A stretch of 64,000 nt of DNA. Source: a virus (taxonomy: Duplodnaviria > Heunggongvirae > Uroviricota > Caudoviricetes). Made by a program: the position numbers and the translations under genes. The notes under the pieces were generated by a model. It was not told where the DNA came from. It searched no databases and saw only the letters and a list, made by a program, of their open reading frames with translations. Shown here in pieces: positions 3,441-11,684 of this stretch; the stretch's first letter is position 1, and every line of letters starts with the position of its first letter. Location of the stretch: IMG/VR virus record IMGVR_UViG_3300014204_000132, one strand, 5' to 3'.

Positions 3441-4157
3441 ATGAAAATTTTCCAAAAAAACAGAGGTTTAATGAATTCATTTATTACTGGTTTAGTAATA
3501 TTTATAGGGTTCATTTTCCTTAGTTCTATATCGAATGATGTACAATACATTAAAGTAGAAGTACCAGTCGATAGACCTGTACCTGTTGAAGTGAATATTT
3601 TAAATGCTCAAAAATTTATTCACGAATTGAGTTTATTTGAATCAGCTACAAATTACGCTGCAAGACGACCAAATTTTATAATAGATGGTGATACTCTGTG
3701 GTCTCAATATTGGGGTAGATACCAGTTTGGTGAAGCTTGTAGAATGTGTTTAGATATCGACCACATATCATGGGAAGATTTTAAAAATAATCCAGAACTT
3801 CAAGATGCTGCAATGATTTATTACATTGCTATTCTTAATAGTCGATTTGAACACTATATGGAGAAGGAAGATACCGTAACCAGAATTAGGAATATTTTTA
3901 ACGAATATTCTAATAAAGTTATAAGAACTCATTATATAACAAATAGCGGACTTGTTGCAATGGCTCACAATATTGGTATTTCAACAGTGGTTGAGTTTTT
4001 AGATTCTGGTTGTAAAACAGTACCAAAAGATGGGTTTGATACGGAATCAGCAAATTATTTAGCATTATCAAATTTTGATTTAAATGTACCAATAGATAAA
4101 GCTAAATATAATCTGGATAAAATTCTGAAAAAATATAATCTTCAGAAAAAAATATAA
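3441..4157 (+). CDS. membrane-anchored hypothetical protein
   Basis: N-terminal hydrophobic segment LVIFIGFIFLSSI. Its stop overlaps the next start (TAATG at 4155-4159). Confidence 0.5.
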   Translation: MKIFQKNRGLMNSFITGLVIFIGFIFLSSISNDVQYIKVEVPVDRPVPVEVNILNAQKFIHELSLFESATNYAARRPNFIIDGDTLWSQYWGRYQFGEACRMCLDIDHISWEDFKNNPELQDAAMIYYIAILNSRFEHYMEKEDTVTRIRNIFNEYSNKVIRTHYITNSGLVAMAHNIGISTVVEFLDSGCKTVPKDGFDTESANYLALSNFDLNVPIDKAKYNLDKILKKYNLQKKI

Positions 4158-4396
4158 TGGATAAATATATAGACGAATTATATAAACTGGACTTTACTTG
4201 TGAAAGTCCAGTTTCTTTTGTTTTAAAAGTTAATGGCGAAAGGGAAATGTTTGTTGAAACAAACACTCGTTTCAATTCATTGTGGGTTAGAATGTCACAA
4301 GGCCAATATAGAATGATTAAAAAGGTAGAAAAAATAGAAGATTTAATACCTTTTATCAAAAATGAAGTCAGAGCATTAAAAATCAGAAATCTCTAA
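4157..4396 (+). CDS. hypothetical small protein
   Basis: Translationally coupled to the upstream gene. Ends ...EVRALKIRNL, a weak version of the shared C-terminal tail. Confidence 0.4.
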   Translation: MDKYIDELYKLDFTCESPVSFVLKVNGEREMFVETNTRFNSLWVRMSQGQYRMIKKVEKIEDLIPFIKNEVRALKIRNL

Positions 4397-4729
4397 TATT
4401 TTTAATCTTCTCAAAATCTGTTTTATATTTCGATTGATTTCAGGTTTATCCCTTGTTATATTATCCAAATTGTTTAATAATTTAACATTCTTATTTTGCT
4501 CATCTAATATTTTGTTTAATTCTTTTTTTGTTATAGCAACATTTGGATATATTACAGTTACTTCATATTTTTCAGATGGTATAACAATCATTTTAAATTC
4601 AGTATTATCAGTATTATCATTTAAATCGACCAGTATTTTTTCTAAATAATACTTTAGAACTTCTTGGGTTTGACTCGCAGAAATACCTACGGGATATGTA
4701 CACTTTAATATAACTAATTTTTTATTCAT
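4376..4729 (-). CDS. hypothetical small protein with shared C-terminal tail (RRLKILEISDF)
   Basis: 117 aa. The C-terminus matches the R-[KR]-L-K-I motif family. Confidence 0.45.
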   Translation of the reverse strand: MNKKLVILKCTYPVGISASQTQEVLKYYLEKILVDLNDNTDNTEFKMIVIPSEKYEVTVIYPNVAITKKELNKILDEQNKNVKLLNNLDNITRDKPEINRNIKQILRRLKILEISDF

Positions 4730-5021
4730 AGAGCGAATCTATTTTATTTTTTCTCTTATTTTGAATAAAAATTTTATATAGTTCATGTAATGTAATATAT
4801 TTAGGGTTTTTATTTCCTACTAATTCGAAAATAACACCAGAATTTTCTATTAATTCAAATTTATCCATATCAATTTTAAATAATTTAAATGATATTATTG
4901 GTTCAAAAACCATCATATCAATAATATAATACTCATTAATAATATGAACTACAACAGGTCTATACGGAGATTCGTGATTTATATGTTTAATTAATTCTTT
5001 ATAGTGAAGACAATCTTTCAT
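4722..5021 (-). CDS. hypothetical small protein with C-terminal RKNKIDSLYE
   Basis: 99 aa. Its C-terminus is near-identical to that of 8085..8573 (RKEKIDSLYD). Confidence 0.45.
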   Translation of the reverse strand: MKDCLHYKELIKHINHESPYRPVVVHIINEYYIIDMMVFEPIISFKLFKIDMDKFELIENSGVIFELVGNKNPKYITLHELYKIFIQNKRKNKIDSLYE

Positions 5022-5690
5022 TTATACTATATTTAAAGCTGATAATATGGGTTTATATTTTATTTTCAATAATATTACCTTATCTGGATTGTATTCAGAT
5101 ATTTGATTCCAAAATCTTCTAAACCATTTTTTATTATTTGTGCTGTAATAATATTGTAGTTTACTTTCTAATTCTTCAAAAGAAAAAGATTTATATGCGT
5201 ATTCCTTTCTTTTTGACTTAGTTTTTATGATTTTTATACCAACACCACCAAGTATAGACTTATAATCGAGAAAAGATAAATCATTATTATCAAAAAATTC
5301 TTTTAATCTATTAAAATGGTCAAATATTATTTTTCTAAACCAATAATCTCTAAAATCCCGTTCAACTGTATAATATCCGATAATATGATTATAAGACATA
5401 AAATCTTCTTCTCGATTGAACATCATTTTTTGTTCTTTGTATAATTCATCATCTACTATTTTAAATAATAATTCATCATTTGATTTCTTATTTTTTTTAA
5501 GTGTATCAATTTTCAAATTAGTCGATGATTTTTCTACAATCAAATTCGTAAGTGAAACTGTATTAACTTCTGTTTCTACTTTTTGTGAATTATAAAATTC
5601 TTTCTTCAAATCCAGAATTCTATTATCAAATTCTTCCTGTAAATTTCTAAGTTTTTTCAGGAACATTTTTTCAGTTTCAATATTTATCAT
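5022..5690 (-). CDS. hypothetical protein
   Basis: 222-aa ORF with a 4-nt overlap with the downstream gene. No recognisable motif. Confidence 0.5.
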   Translation of the reverse strand: MINIETEKMFLKKLRNLQEEFDNRILDLKKEFYNSQKVETEVNTVSLTNLIVEKSSTNLKIDTLKKNKKSNDELLFKIVDDELYKEQKMMFNREEDFMSYNHIIGYYTVERDFRDYWFRKIIFDHFNRLKEFFDNNDLSFLDYKSILGGVGIKIIKTKSKRKEYAYKSFSFEELESKLQYYYSTNNKKWFRRFWNQISEYNPDKVILLKIKYKPILSALNIV

Positions 5691-6300
5691 AAAGCAACAT
5701 ATAAACGGTTCATGTTTAAAACAACCTCATCTATAATTCGGTCTAAATTTTCAATTGGTGGTTTATTTTCAAATATTAAATCAAATCCATCATAATTATC
5801 GAGTTCAATTTCTGATGCATGATTCATATCTCTCTGGTCATTTTCTCTTAGAGATGTTGGGTCACCATTCAACCTGATTAATAAACCACCCATTTTTTTG
5901 ATATAATCAGCCTCGTTTTTAAATCTAACATCCGAAACAACCCAATTATCAACTTCAGGGTGATACTTTGAAAACAATGATAAAACCCACGCATCATGAT
6001 GAAGATTATTTCTAATAGCTTCAGTGCCTATTTTTTGCTGCATTTCACCAACTGTCATCCCCCACTCAGGTAAAAATTTTAGTTTACCTTCTCTGGACAT
6101 AGCTTCTTCCATAGATATACCAGTTAAATAAGATACGATATATTTTAAATCGTATGCAAATTTTTTGTTTTCAAATTTAATCCCTTGTTTTTCGTAATAC
6201 TGAATAATTCTTTCAGAAAATGCATCTTTTCCATTTAACCCGACCCTATCTTACCAGAAATCCCGATTAGATAGGGTCGTTTTTTAATTGTTTTATTCAT
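5687..6300 (-). CDS. deoxynucleoside monophosphate kinase (T4 gp1-like), apparently frameshifted
   Basis: The C-terminal part (5687..6112 plus in-frame upstream extension to 6253) reads ...GLNGKDAFSERIIQYYEKQG...WVVSDVRFKNEADYIKKMGGLLIR (dNMP kinase-like). The N-terminal piece 6235..6300 reads MNKTIKKRPYLIGISGKIGSG* in another frame. A 1-nt change in the ggtt/aaa run at 6234-6241 would fuse them into the GxxxxGKD P-loop. Confidence 0.55.
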
Positions 6301-10540: not shown

Positions 10541-10814
10541 ACAACTCTTTTAATTTTTTCATTCTTTGTGTAATATATTGTTCAAGTTTTTCACATTTTA
10601 TTTTGTAAATATGAAATCTATTAAAATTAGAACAAACATACCCAATCTCATAAATCAAATATTCAAGGTTTTTTATATTTTTATTTTTTTGTGTGAAAAT
10701 TTCTGTCTTACTATATATGTTCTGTTTAACATATATTATTTTAACCCCACTTAAACCTTCATCTAAAAGAAATTCTTTTGCTTTTAAATGTAATGATGTG
10801 TTATATATTTTCAT
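10512..10814 (-). CDS. hypothetical small protein
   Basis: 100 aa. C-terminus RMKKLKELFEYDPDFTI resembles the shared tail. Confidence 0.4.
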   Translation of the reverse strand: MKIYNTSLHLKAKEFLLDEGLSGVKIIYVKQNIYSKTEIFTQKNKNIKNLEYLIYEIGYVCSNFNRFHIYKIKCEKLEQYITQRMKKLKELFEYDPDFTI

Positions 10815-10822
10815 ATCTAACT

Positions 10823-11374
10823 TTATAAATCAGGGTTTGTTAATAAACCATTATCAACATATTTAGTAACATCTATTTTCTGATATAAACCAACAAGATA
10901 ATCCAAATGAATTCTAAAAAATTTTGCGTTAGTTTCATTTTGAACTATACATGGTTGAATAATAAGACAAGTTTTAGCATCCAGTTTACCCCTATTATTT
11001 TTTATAAATTTACGTAATTCTTTAGTTTTAAAAATATACATTATATGCTGTGTACTTTTAGGAAGGGAGCTAATAAAAATAAAATATTCAGCTTTAGTTA
11101 TTACTATACCAGATGGTTTTTTCCATGACTCATATTCAACGGCAAAGTGATTATTCATTGCTACATATTTATCGTGCTTAACCTCAATAAAACATAGGAC
11201 GTTATTATTATCATCATATACTATTAAATCGAAAAATTTTAAATCTTCATTTTTACGATTTTCAACGATATTATAATGTTTAATTTTATGAAAATATTCT
11301 AATGCAAAAAGTTCATATTTCTTAGCATCTATTAAATCTTTATCAAAATTATTTTTAGAAGAAGGAAAATCCAT
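10823..11374 (-). CDS. hypothetical protein, possible PD-(D/E)xK nuclease fold
   Basis: FDLIVYDD...CFIEVKH gives a D...E-x-K arrangement. Weak evidence. Confidence 0.35.
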   Translation of the reverse strand: MDFPSSKNNFDKDLIDAKKYELFALEYFHKIKHYNIVENRKNEDLKFFDLIVYDDNNNVLCFIEVKHDKYVAMNNHFAVEYESWKKPSGIVITKAEYFIFISSLPKSTQHIMYIFKTKELRKFIKNNRGKLDAKTCLIIQPCIVQNETNAKFFRIHLDYLVGLYQKIDVTKYVDNGLLTNPDL

Positions 11375-11417
11375 AATAATTTTTATTTAATATATTCAAA
11401 ATAATGAATAAAGTTTA

Positions 11418-11684
11418 TCATTCTAAAACCTCTAATTCAATATCAAATAATTCTTCTATTTTTAATTTTCTGGTTCTTCTCAAATAATAATCGTTAATTT
11501 TATTAGTTTTAATTCTATATGTATGCGAGTTTCCAGCTAAACGTAAATTAAAATCGTAAACAGTATATGTTTTTGTTAAATATTTATATACACATTCTCT
11601 TATATTTGATATTTCAAAATTTTCAAAACCATAATCTTTTAGATAAGTAATGATATCAATTTCTATATCTTTTTTTAAATTCAT
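11418..11684 (-). CDS. small protein with shared C-terminal tail (RKLKIEELFDIELE)
   Basis: 88 aa. Confidence 0.45.
   Translation of the reverse strand: MNLKKDIEIDIITYLKDYGFENFEISNIRECVYKYLTKTYTVYDFNLRLAGNSHTYRIKTNKINDYYLRRTRKLKIEELFDIELEVLE

Follow-up and report, generated by a model that had tools for sequence, protein, structure and literature searches.

A recurrent C-terminal peptide on small proteins of a Mahaphage-clade megaphage and its possible role as a docking signal

Tail-bearing proteins of the window

We analyzed a 64,000-nucleotide stretch of phage DNA (IMG/VR record IMGVR_UViG_3300014204_000132, hereafter the window), which has a G+C content of ~25% and whose proteins sit on a 678,337-bp contig of a Mahaphage-clade megaphage, with respect to a short peptide that closes many of its small proteins and is referred to here as the tail. 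A preliminary description had named seven open reading frames (ORFs) with such an ending and, together with a tandem array, arrived at 12 or more carriers in 64 kb. On re-reading, all seven ORFs and their quoted C-termini proved correct, including the KIDSLY[DE] variant that closes both 8085..8573 and 4722..5021, and the count rose to 15 with the addition of 9478-10140 and, elsewhere in the window, of 22277-22957 and 29866-30573. The tail genes are as follows (bit scores refer to a matrix trained on the array tails, see below).

4376..4729, minus strand: 117-residue protein, tail RRLKILEISDF, core 4385-4411; 11.4 bits; no co-directional downstream gene start nearby
4722..5021, minus strand: 99-residue protein, tail RKNKIDSLYE (KIDSLY variant), core 4728-4754; the start codon of the next gene overlaps TAT-GAA
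7669..7872 (ATG at 7869), minus strand: 66/67-residue protein, tail RKIKIEKILK, EIRKIKIEKILK, core 7675-7701; 20.8 bits; paralog of 7859-8092; 67 nt to the next gene
7859..8092, minus strand: 77-residue protein, tail EIRRLKIKQILGDDE, RRLKIKQILGDDE, core 7874-7900; matched by the array-trained matrix; ortholog in a related locus (L052)
8085..8573, minus strand: 162-residue protein, tail RKEKIDSLYD (KIDSLY variant), core 8091-8117; missing from a 421-kb relative
9478..10140, minus strand: 220-residue protein, tail RKAKIKSIIPEI, core 9490-9516; 14.3 bits, 3 residues from the end; new member, unlisted in the preliminary description
10512..10814, minus strand: 100-residue protein, tail RMKKLKELFEYDPDFTI, core 10539-10565; 13.6 bits; paralog of 11418-11684 (E=3e-6)
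11418..11684, minus strand: 88-residue protein, tail RKLKIEELFDIELEVLE, core 11445-11471; 20.6 bits; 43 nt to the next gene
22277..22957, minus strand: 226-residue protein, tail RKLKINNLLDGDVY, core 22295-22321; 12.7 bits; 3' end convergent with 21732-22280
29866..30573, minus strand: 235-residue protein, tail RLLKIEEILKDDE, core 29881-29907; 21.6 bits; convergent 3' end; three orthologs
51962..53592, plus strand: tandem array of five paralogs of 100-121 residues, directly after the gene of a UvsW-like helicase
Array tails, plus strand: RKLKIKDILGDELYR (core 52217-52243), RLSKLKNIFEDDI (52533-52559), RKLKIEEIINDELS (52885-52911), RKKKLEKIFSQ (53213-53239) and RKIKIEEIFSDDRCTC (53542-53568)

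The carriers (15 of the ~85 window proteins, ~18%) are small and mostly unrelated to one another. Alignment of their tails anchored on the arginine yields the core R0-x-x-K3-[IL]4-x-x-[IL]7-[LFIY]8. Between this core and the stop codon, each of the 15 members has one to eight further residues that vary and are often acidic. R0 and K3 never change, position 8 is L, F, I or Y and only once S, and the KIDSLY variants match the key positions R0, K3, I4, L7 and Y8. In most members an aromatic/hydrophobic pattern is also seen upstream of the arginine. Tail peptide sequences of the family further include NERLLKIEEILKDDE and KDRKIKIEEIFSDD.

The recurrence is real and far beyond chance, as the preliminary description had asserted. 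A 9-residue matrix trained on the five array tails only was used to scan the other 80 window proteins, and the top eight of 17,868 positions all fell within eight residues of a C-terminus (hypergeometric p=5e-9), with a score gap of 11.4 versus 8.8 bits. When the 25 C-terminal residues of each protein were shuffled, such matches averaged 0.31 versus the eight observed. The same description had allowed that a composition rich in K, I and E might account for the motif. This compositional explanation was ruled out by the shuffles and by cross-genome controls: a window-trained matrix applied to the complete 735-kb genome of phage LR756501 (1,016 ORF-called proteins) revealed neither C-terminal enrichment nor any excess over shuffles, and a strict regular expression had no C-terminal match in 141 genes from equally AT-rich megaphage DNA-polymerase neighborhoods.

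The possibility that the peptide is a by-product of a signal in the nucleic acid, such as an A-rich 3' end acting as an initiation region or a regulatory RNA site, deserved attention because 10 of the 15 tail genes have the start of the following gene no more than 10 nt from their stop codon or overlapping it, and the D-[DE] past the core is often encoded where a G-ATG-A start codon overlaps. On the other hand, among the 32 tightly coupled junctions (next start within 10 nt) the tail is present at 10 and absent at 22, and for five of the 15 tails no co-directional gene begins within 40 nt; at least two of these five genes have a 3' end convergent with a neighbor. One of these 3' ends, that of 22277-22957, converges on 21732-22280, and therefore a downstream start codon cannot explain its tail. 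The three orthologs of 29866-30573 (72% identical overall) likewise retain the tail though nothing is translated downstream: NERLLKIEEIL is invariant among them and the residues beyond it vary. Finally, the amino acids are fixed while their codons are not. The invariant arginine is encoded by AGA (six tails), CGG (four), AGG (three) and CGA (two), and the leucine and isoleucine codons vary in the same way. Since codons vary at fixed residues, 22 of 32 coupled junctions lack a tail and five tails are uncoupled, we conclude that selection acts on the protein sequence of the tail, not on the DNA. The codon variation together with the junction statistics ruled out an origin in a DNA repeat, a promoter or a translation-initiation signal, and promoter words of the type AAAATTGA, considered as a source of the K-I-E residues, were dropped once the codons had been inspected. 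The nucleotide-level explanation is thereby largely refuted.

A separate observation concerns codon choice: CGG encodes the invariant arginine in four of 15 tails versus 3% of all arginine codons in the window (e.g. at 7699-7701, 7898-7900, 8115-8117 and 29905-29907). Three of these four sites lie in adjacent genes, and the excess probably reflects shared ancestry.

Conservation, turnover and modularity

Related loci were drawn from IMG/VR by means of the UvsW gene and the topoisomerase II gene. The two close relatives, on contigs of 639,979 bp and 421,673 bp, have retained the array with its tails. Between phages, identity is only 33-73% for the array proteins (orthologs in loci L040 and L046) versus 84-88% for the flanking genes, and these orthologs keep R0, K3 and positions 4, 7 and 8. 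In L052, the 421-kb relative, the ortholog of 7669-7872 has an identical tail, and that of 7859-8092 (88% identity) ends in RRLKIKNILDDDE. Other tail genes have been gained or lost between close relatives, as is the case for accessory genes of host interaction. These alignments indicate purifying selection on the key positions.

The junction between uvsW and the array has a history of its own. An extra ORF of 563-616 residues lies between the two in L040 (11560-13251) and L046 (12099-13949) and is absent at the corresponding window position (51918-51962); uvsW itself is split into two ORFs in L046; and the first array gene (51962-52264) has no ortholog in either locus. This shows the junction to be a site of rapid gene flux.

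Distant relatives, with UvsW proteins 41-55% identical to that of the window, carry the variants RDKKIDDIF, RDKKITDVL, RDIKIEDIL and REDKINRIL. When a regular expression derived from the window was applied to independent loci of the clade, 21 of 28 matches fell within 12 residues of a C-terminus versus 4.8% expected (p=2e-22). At position 7, all 35 clade tails have I, L or V, and 16 of the 35 have an aromatic residue at position 8. The tail is clade-wide with lineage-specific variants, as co-evolution of the motif with a partner would lead one to expect.

The preliminary description had placed the motif in the context of T4-like and jumbo phages. The window itself belongs to a Mahaphage-clade megaphage, which calls for a narrower frame. 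When IMG/VR was scanned for exact DNA matches to the RKLKIEEI variant alone, 10 loci were returned, at only one of which the peptide is C-terminal (a low-GC megaphage-like contig). The other nine are internal chance matches, mostly in one tail-fiber-like family. A megablast search with positions 4000-12000 of the window against the phage collection gave no match.

The tail is modular. After its removal, comparison of the 15 members left detectable similarity in only two pairs (52916/53245 and 7669/7859), and four pairs are recognizable as paralogs over their full length: 7669/7859 (E=6e-8), 10512/11418 (E=3e-6), 51962/52564 (E=1e-6) and 52916/53245 (E=1e-13). Similarity beyond the tail does not extend to all members, as it would in a single paralogous domain family. 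The window carriers that were compared with Pfam and PHROGs had no significant match. With regard to the SAP, HeH and Rho_N domains, ten of the window tail proteins had no match to such Pfam models even at E<=1, and the conserved segment comprises ~9-20 residues versus ~35 for the helix-loop-helix of these domains. Tail profiles compared with PDB sequences returned noise only (best E=0.15).

The clearest illustration of modularity comes from outside the window, from the low-GC related contig recovered by the exact RKLKIEEI scan (L025, IMGVR_UViG_3300037067_010608). Within 3 kb, this contig encodes three proteins that clearly bear the tail and a fourth with a tail-like end. One of them is the following.

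L025 5935-6648, minus strand: 237-residue homolog of Acb3, an inhibitor of the cyclic-oligonucleotide-based anti-phage signaling system (CBASS; Pfam PF25187, E=6e-26), tail ..KERMKKIEAIYE

Its Acb3 domain reaches to residue 218 and is followed by a 19-residue extension that includes the tail. All listed Vibrio phage tblastn matches to this protein stop at residue 218, and the homolog in Vibrio phage MAR10 ends 5 residues past the domain, with no tail extension. The L025 protein is a clear member of the Acb3 family and links the tail to an anti-defense protein. On the other hand, this homolog lies outside the window, no window protein matches Acb3, and the MAR10 homolog is tail-less.

Phage LR756501 has a terminal peptide of its own. 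About 30 of its small proteins (45-165 residues, ~3% of the proteome) end in [DE]E[WFIY]KN-x-KRT-x-L[IM]D-x-MLN, and their genes form four clusters (20461-20958, 215833-224000, 274369-278528 and 672656-674909). This peptide follows diverse N-terminal domains, including zinc ribbons, MORN-like HRxDGPA repeats and other small domains; a Pfam search of 20 carriers returned only weak zinc-ribbon matches. The LR756501 tail agrees with the window tail in the arginine, in the hydrophobic character of positions +4, +7 and +8 and in the acidic +5. Homology of the two is plausible.

A proposed docking peptide and competing explanations

Taken together, the strict terminal position of the motif, its modularity, the five-residue conserved face, the fast divergence and turnover of the carriers and the lineage-specific variants lead us to propose that the tail is a docking or targeting helix: a modular, protein-level C-terminal peptide of ~9-12 residues serving one common partner. 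We would assign this interpretation a probability of about 0.5. The peptide would probably form the end of an amphipathic helix that presents R0, K3, [IL]4, [IL]7 and [LFIY]8. Megaphages of the Mahaphage clade would attach it to many small, fast-evolving and mostly unrelated accessory proteins, with the variable N-terminal part doing the specific job and the constant tail plugging the protein into a shared partner, which might be phage-encoded or specific to a host lineage. Binding to such a partner is what we infer from the pattern. The first choice among candidate partners, itself rather unlikely, is a sliding clamp of the phage T4 type; an unfoldase/protease and a virion or scaffold component are the others.

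Several observations weigh against this proposal. No partner, processing step or target was identified, and the suggestion in the preliminary description that the carriers share a partner, or else a route of processing or targeting, is therefore supported in part, namely as regards a protein-level, C-terminal, modular, conserved and clade-wide signal. Several carriers are paralogous, so that part of the recurrence is due to common descent. The window-trained matrix misses the LR756501 tails, and homology between the two versions is not demonstrated. Finally, in an AlphaFold2 model of 53245-53592 (12 sequences; predicted local distance difference test score, pLDDT, 90.7; predicted template-modeling score, pTM, 0.81) the tail lies within a long C-terminal helix (residues 91-111; pLDDT 90-96 over residues 91-110) and is not floppy; according to the model, it may pack on the protein's own core there. 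No structural neighbors of this model were found, and the model of 29866-30573 (four sequences) was unusable (pLDDT 48).

The helix in the confident model is also the starting point of a serious rival, namely that the tail is a structural element, a last helix or a self-association helix contributing to stability or oligomerization, and that its recurrence stems mostly from a few paralogous families. The existence of full-length paralogs among the carriers and the aromatic/hydrophobic pattern before the arginine are in line with it. What is difficult to reconcile with this explanation is the occurrence of the tail on proteins of 40-237 residues with no detectable similarity once it is trimmed, its addition to an Acb3 domain whose MAR10 homolog ends five residues past the domain, and the attachment of the related LR756501 tail to zinc-ribbon and MORN-like domains. 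In addition, an invariant and presumably solvent-exposed pair of arginine and lysine is hard to account for by packing alone. Overall, we regard a purely structural role as unlikely, if to be taken seriously.

A more specific alternative is that the tail is a sliding-clamp-binding peptide of the T4 gp45 or PCNA-interacting protein (PIP) box type, which would tether small proteins to the phage or host clamp alongside or against the DNA polymerase. The tails of T4 itself, taken from the T4 genome (gp43 ..ASLDFLFG, gp55 ..PSLDFLYEAND and gp33 ..NTLDFLL), represent the closest known analog: in one phage, several unrelated proteins close with one short peptide. They have in common with the window tails the succession hydrophobic-acidic-x-hydrophobic-[F/Y/L], and they are followed by 0-4 extra, sometimes acidic, residues, comparable to the 1-8 residues between core and stop codon in all 15 window members. 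The window patterns K-I-E-E-I-[LF] and K-I-D-S-L-Y and the K-I-D-D-I-F of relatives resemble the T4 pattern. Furthermore, the inspected family-B polymerase halves of the clade (described below) carry the segment INKR-x-[SA]-[VI]-L-[NG]-S-[LI]-F, the spacing of which equals that of the tails (R0, hydrophobic residues at 4 and 7, F at 8). The clade also possesses a T4-like replication set (gp44-like clamp loader, gp32, RNase H and UvsW), and one array directly follows uvsW.

The detailed comparison is less favorable. Instead of the T4 consensus [ST]-L-D-F-L-[FYL], the window tails read K-[IL]-[EKDN]-x-[IL]-[LFIY], and only the hydrophobic/acidic spacing is common to both: an invariant lysine replaces Ser/Thr immediately before the first hydrophobic residue, an invariant arginine stands four residues upstream of that residue, and the third-position phenylalanine is missing. 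Nor do the tails conform to the canonical PIP box Q-x-x-[ILM]-x-x-[FY]-[FY], as the glutamine is missing and position 7 is aliphatic, not aromatic, throughout the clade. A matrix built on the LR756501 tail fails to pick out that phage's own polymerase tail (rank 5,293); the C-terminus of the LR756501 polymerase is acidic and aromatic and resembles that of RB69 (..GMLFDADDYVDEDDLLD). Sequence searches detected no clamp gene; in LR756501 they found no homologs of T4 gp45 or gp33 and only weak phmmer matches to gp55, unconfirmed by Pfam. No recognizable replication enzyme bears the tail, and its window carriers are 15 small proteins with no annotated function in 64 kb. We judge a clamp-binding function to be possible and yet rather improbable.

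Still more doubtful is a sorting or turnover signal, either for targeting anti-defense proteins to the capsid or scaffold for co-injection or as a degron or adaptor tail for an AAA+ protease. Common terminal peptides on many unrelated small proteins are known from the T4 capsid-targeting sequence and from SspB and ssrA-type tails. Encapsulin cargo-loading and microcompartment peptides, like the T4 sequence, are short terminal amphipathic peptides on otherwise unrelated cargo, and the microcompartment peptide of PduD (..LLRQIIEDVL) has a similar hydrophobic periodicity. An Acb3-type immune inhibitor, a class that would gain from acting right after injection, is found among the carriers of the relatives, and the lineage-specific variants would fit a phage-encoded receptor. 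On the other hand, the T4 capsid-targeting sequence comprises ~10 N-terminal residues and is cleaved after Glu by the prohead protease, whereas the window motif is exclusively C-terminal with no consistent [LI]-x-E site, and encapsulin peptides follow another consensus. Known ClpX and Lon tags differ in sequence and usually need a defined free C-terminus; here one to eight variable residues trail the core. The genomic context is unfavorable as well: the tail genes stand in co-directional blocks with genes of replication and nucleotide metabolism (dNMP kinase, NADAR, topoisomerase II and UvsW), not with large structural genes. A packaging signal or degron is possible on these grounds, though not probable.

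In view of the codon, junction, shuffling and cross-genome evidence given above, a nucleotide signal or a mere K/I/E-rich composition as the source of the peptide is highly improbable.

In its architecture, the proposed docking peptide can also be likened to the poxvirus ankyrin/PRANC (F-box-like) proteins and to the ClpX-binding peptide of SspB, which combine a diverse, fast-evolving N-terminal module with a short conserved C-terminal dock; tandem arrays and turnover between close relatives are further common traits. In contrast to these families, with which there is no sequence similarity, the tail is a peptide of ~9-12 residues and not a domain, and the likeness is one of architecture alone. 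Terminal motifs shared by many viral proteins have precedents in T4 clamp tails, PIP boxes, F-box/PRANC families and cargo-loading peptides. New here are the motif itself, the scale on which it occurs and the proteins that bear it; text searches of the literature, including searches for Mahaphage and megaphage motifs, found no description of the tail.

Neighboring genes and biological meaning

The tail genes occur in tight co-directional strings of small ORFs amid replication and nucleotide-metabolism genes and outside the blocks of large ORFs. Recognizable neighbors encode a dNMP (deoxynucleoside monophosphate) kinase-like protein, a cytidylyltransferase, a NADAR protein, a radical-SAM protein, an SPFH protein and a single-chain topoisomerase II (16625-19918) that is 51% identical to that of LR756501. 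Two helicases, one of them the UvsW homolog, are among the window genes, and one neighboring ORF was labeled GIY-YIG by eye alone. The tail was found on none of the recognizable replication or transcription proteins, and the window showed no genes for shells or encapsulins. As to the host, published work on landfill Mahaphages achieved no host link, and Bacteroidetes had previously been predicted as hosts of the clade (PMC12607003).

Two further features of the window, which lie apart from the tail genes, may be recorded.

33814-34326 and 34327-34833, minus strand: tandem paralogs of 170 and 168 residues with no family assignment, ending ..CVIENKI and ..CVVENKLF
60214-61032, plus strand: 272-residue ORF with a low-complexity C-terminal region rich in Ser, Gly, Arg and Thr, ..SSSSGQSTRTYSGTQSRSGSNSGTRSTGRR

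The tandem pair has ~36% cross-identity via its counterparts in L052 and is kept in that 421-kb relative.

LR756501 offered several additional observations. Its family-B DNA polymerase is split into two genes ~618 kb apart, at 90179-91693 (minus strand) and 709334-711034 (plus strand). The C-terminal half is matched by 695 database homologs (E<=1e-10), and all 14 C-terminal halves inspected are stand-alone proteins of 453-570 residues that carry ..INKRxSVLNSLFGF, several with an acidic extension; some homologs carry the intein-related Pfam domain PF14890. In addition, the peptide DPYGEE-x-W, which is absent from the window, occurs in 107 copies in LR756501 proteins, often several per large protein (e.g. 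44452-46983, 154863-158402, 499642-503434 and 552104-556034), and is often preceded by [KR]-[RVI]-[VI]-[FY]-[ST]. While 41 of the 107 copies lie within 12 residues of a C-terminus, many are near the N-terminus and others between domains. A text search of the literature for 'DPYGEE' found no phage paper.

In a broader and more tentative interpretation, Mahaphage-clade phages may possess a motif network comparable to those built on PIP boxes or F-boxes in eukaryotes and poxviruses, in which a lineage-specific C-terminal address label plugs a large and quickly diversifying set of small host-takeover and anti-defense proteins, including Acb3-like ones, into one hub; LR756501 would then use at least two labels (KRTxLIDxML and DPYGEExW). 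The hub of such a network would be the sliding clamp, an unfoldase/protease or a virion component, and a single hub could tie together dozens of accessory proteins. Should the partner prove to be the sliding clamp, the network would be the first large one centered on a clamp to be described in a phage. A megaphage has ~1,000 genes, most of them with no known function, and the shared tail provides an experimental handle on them. The combination of a constant tail with fast-evolving heads, one of them anti-CBASS, makes the carriers candidates for new anti-defense or host-takeover functions.

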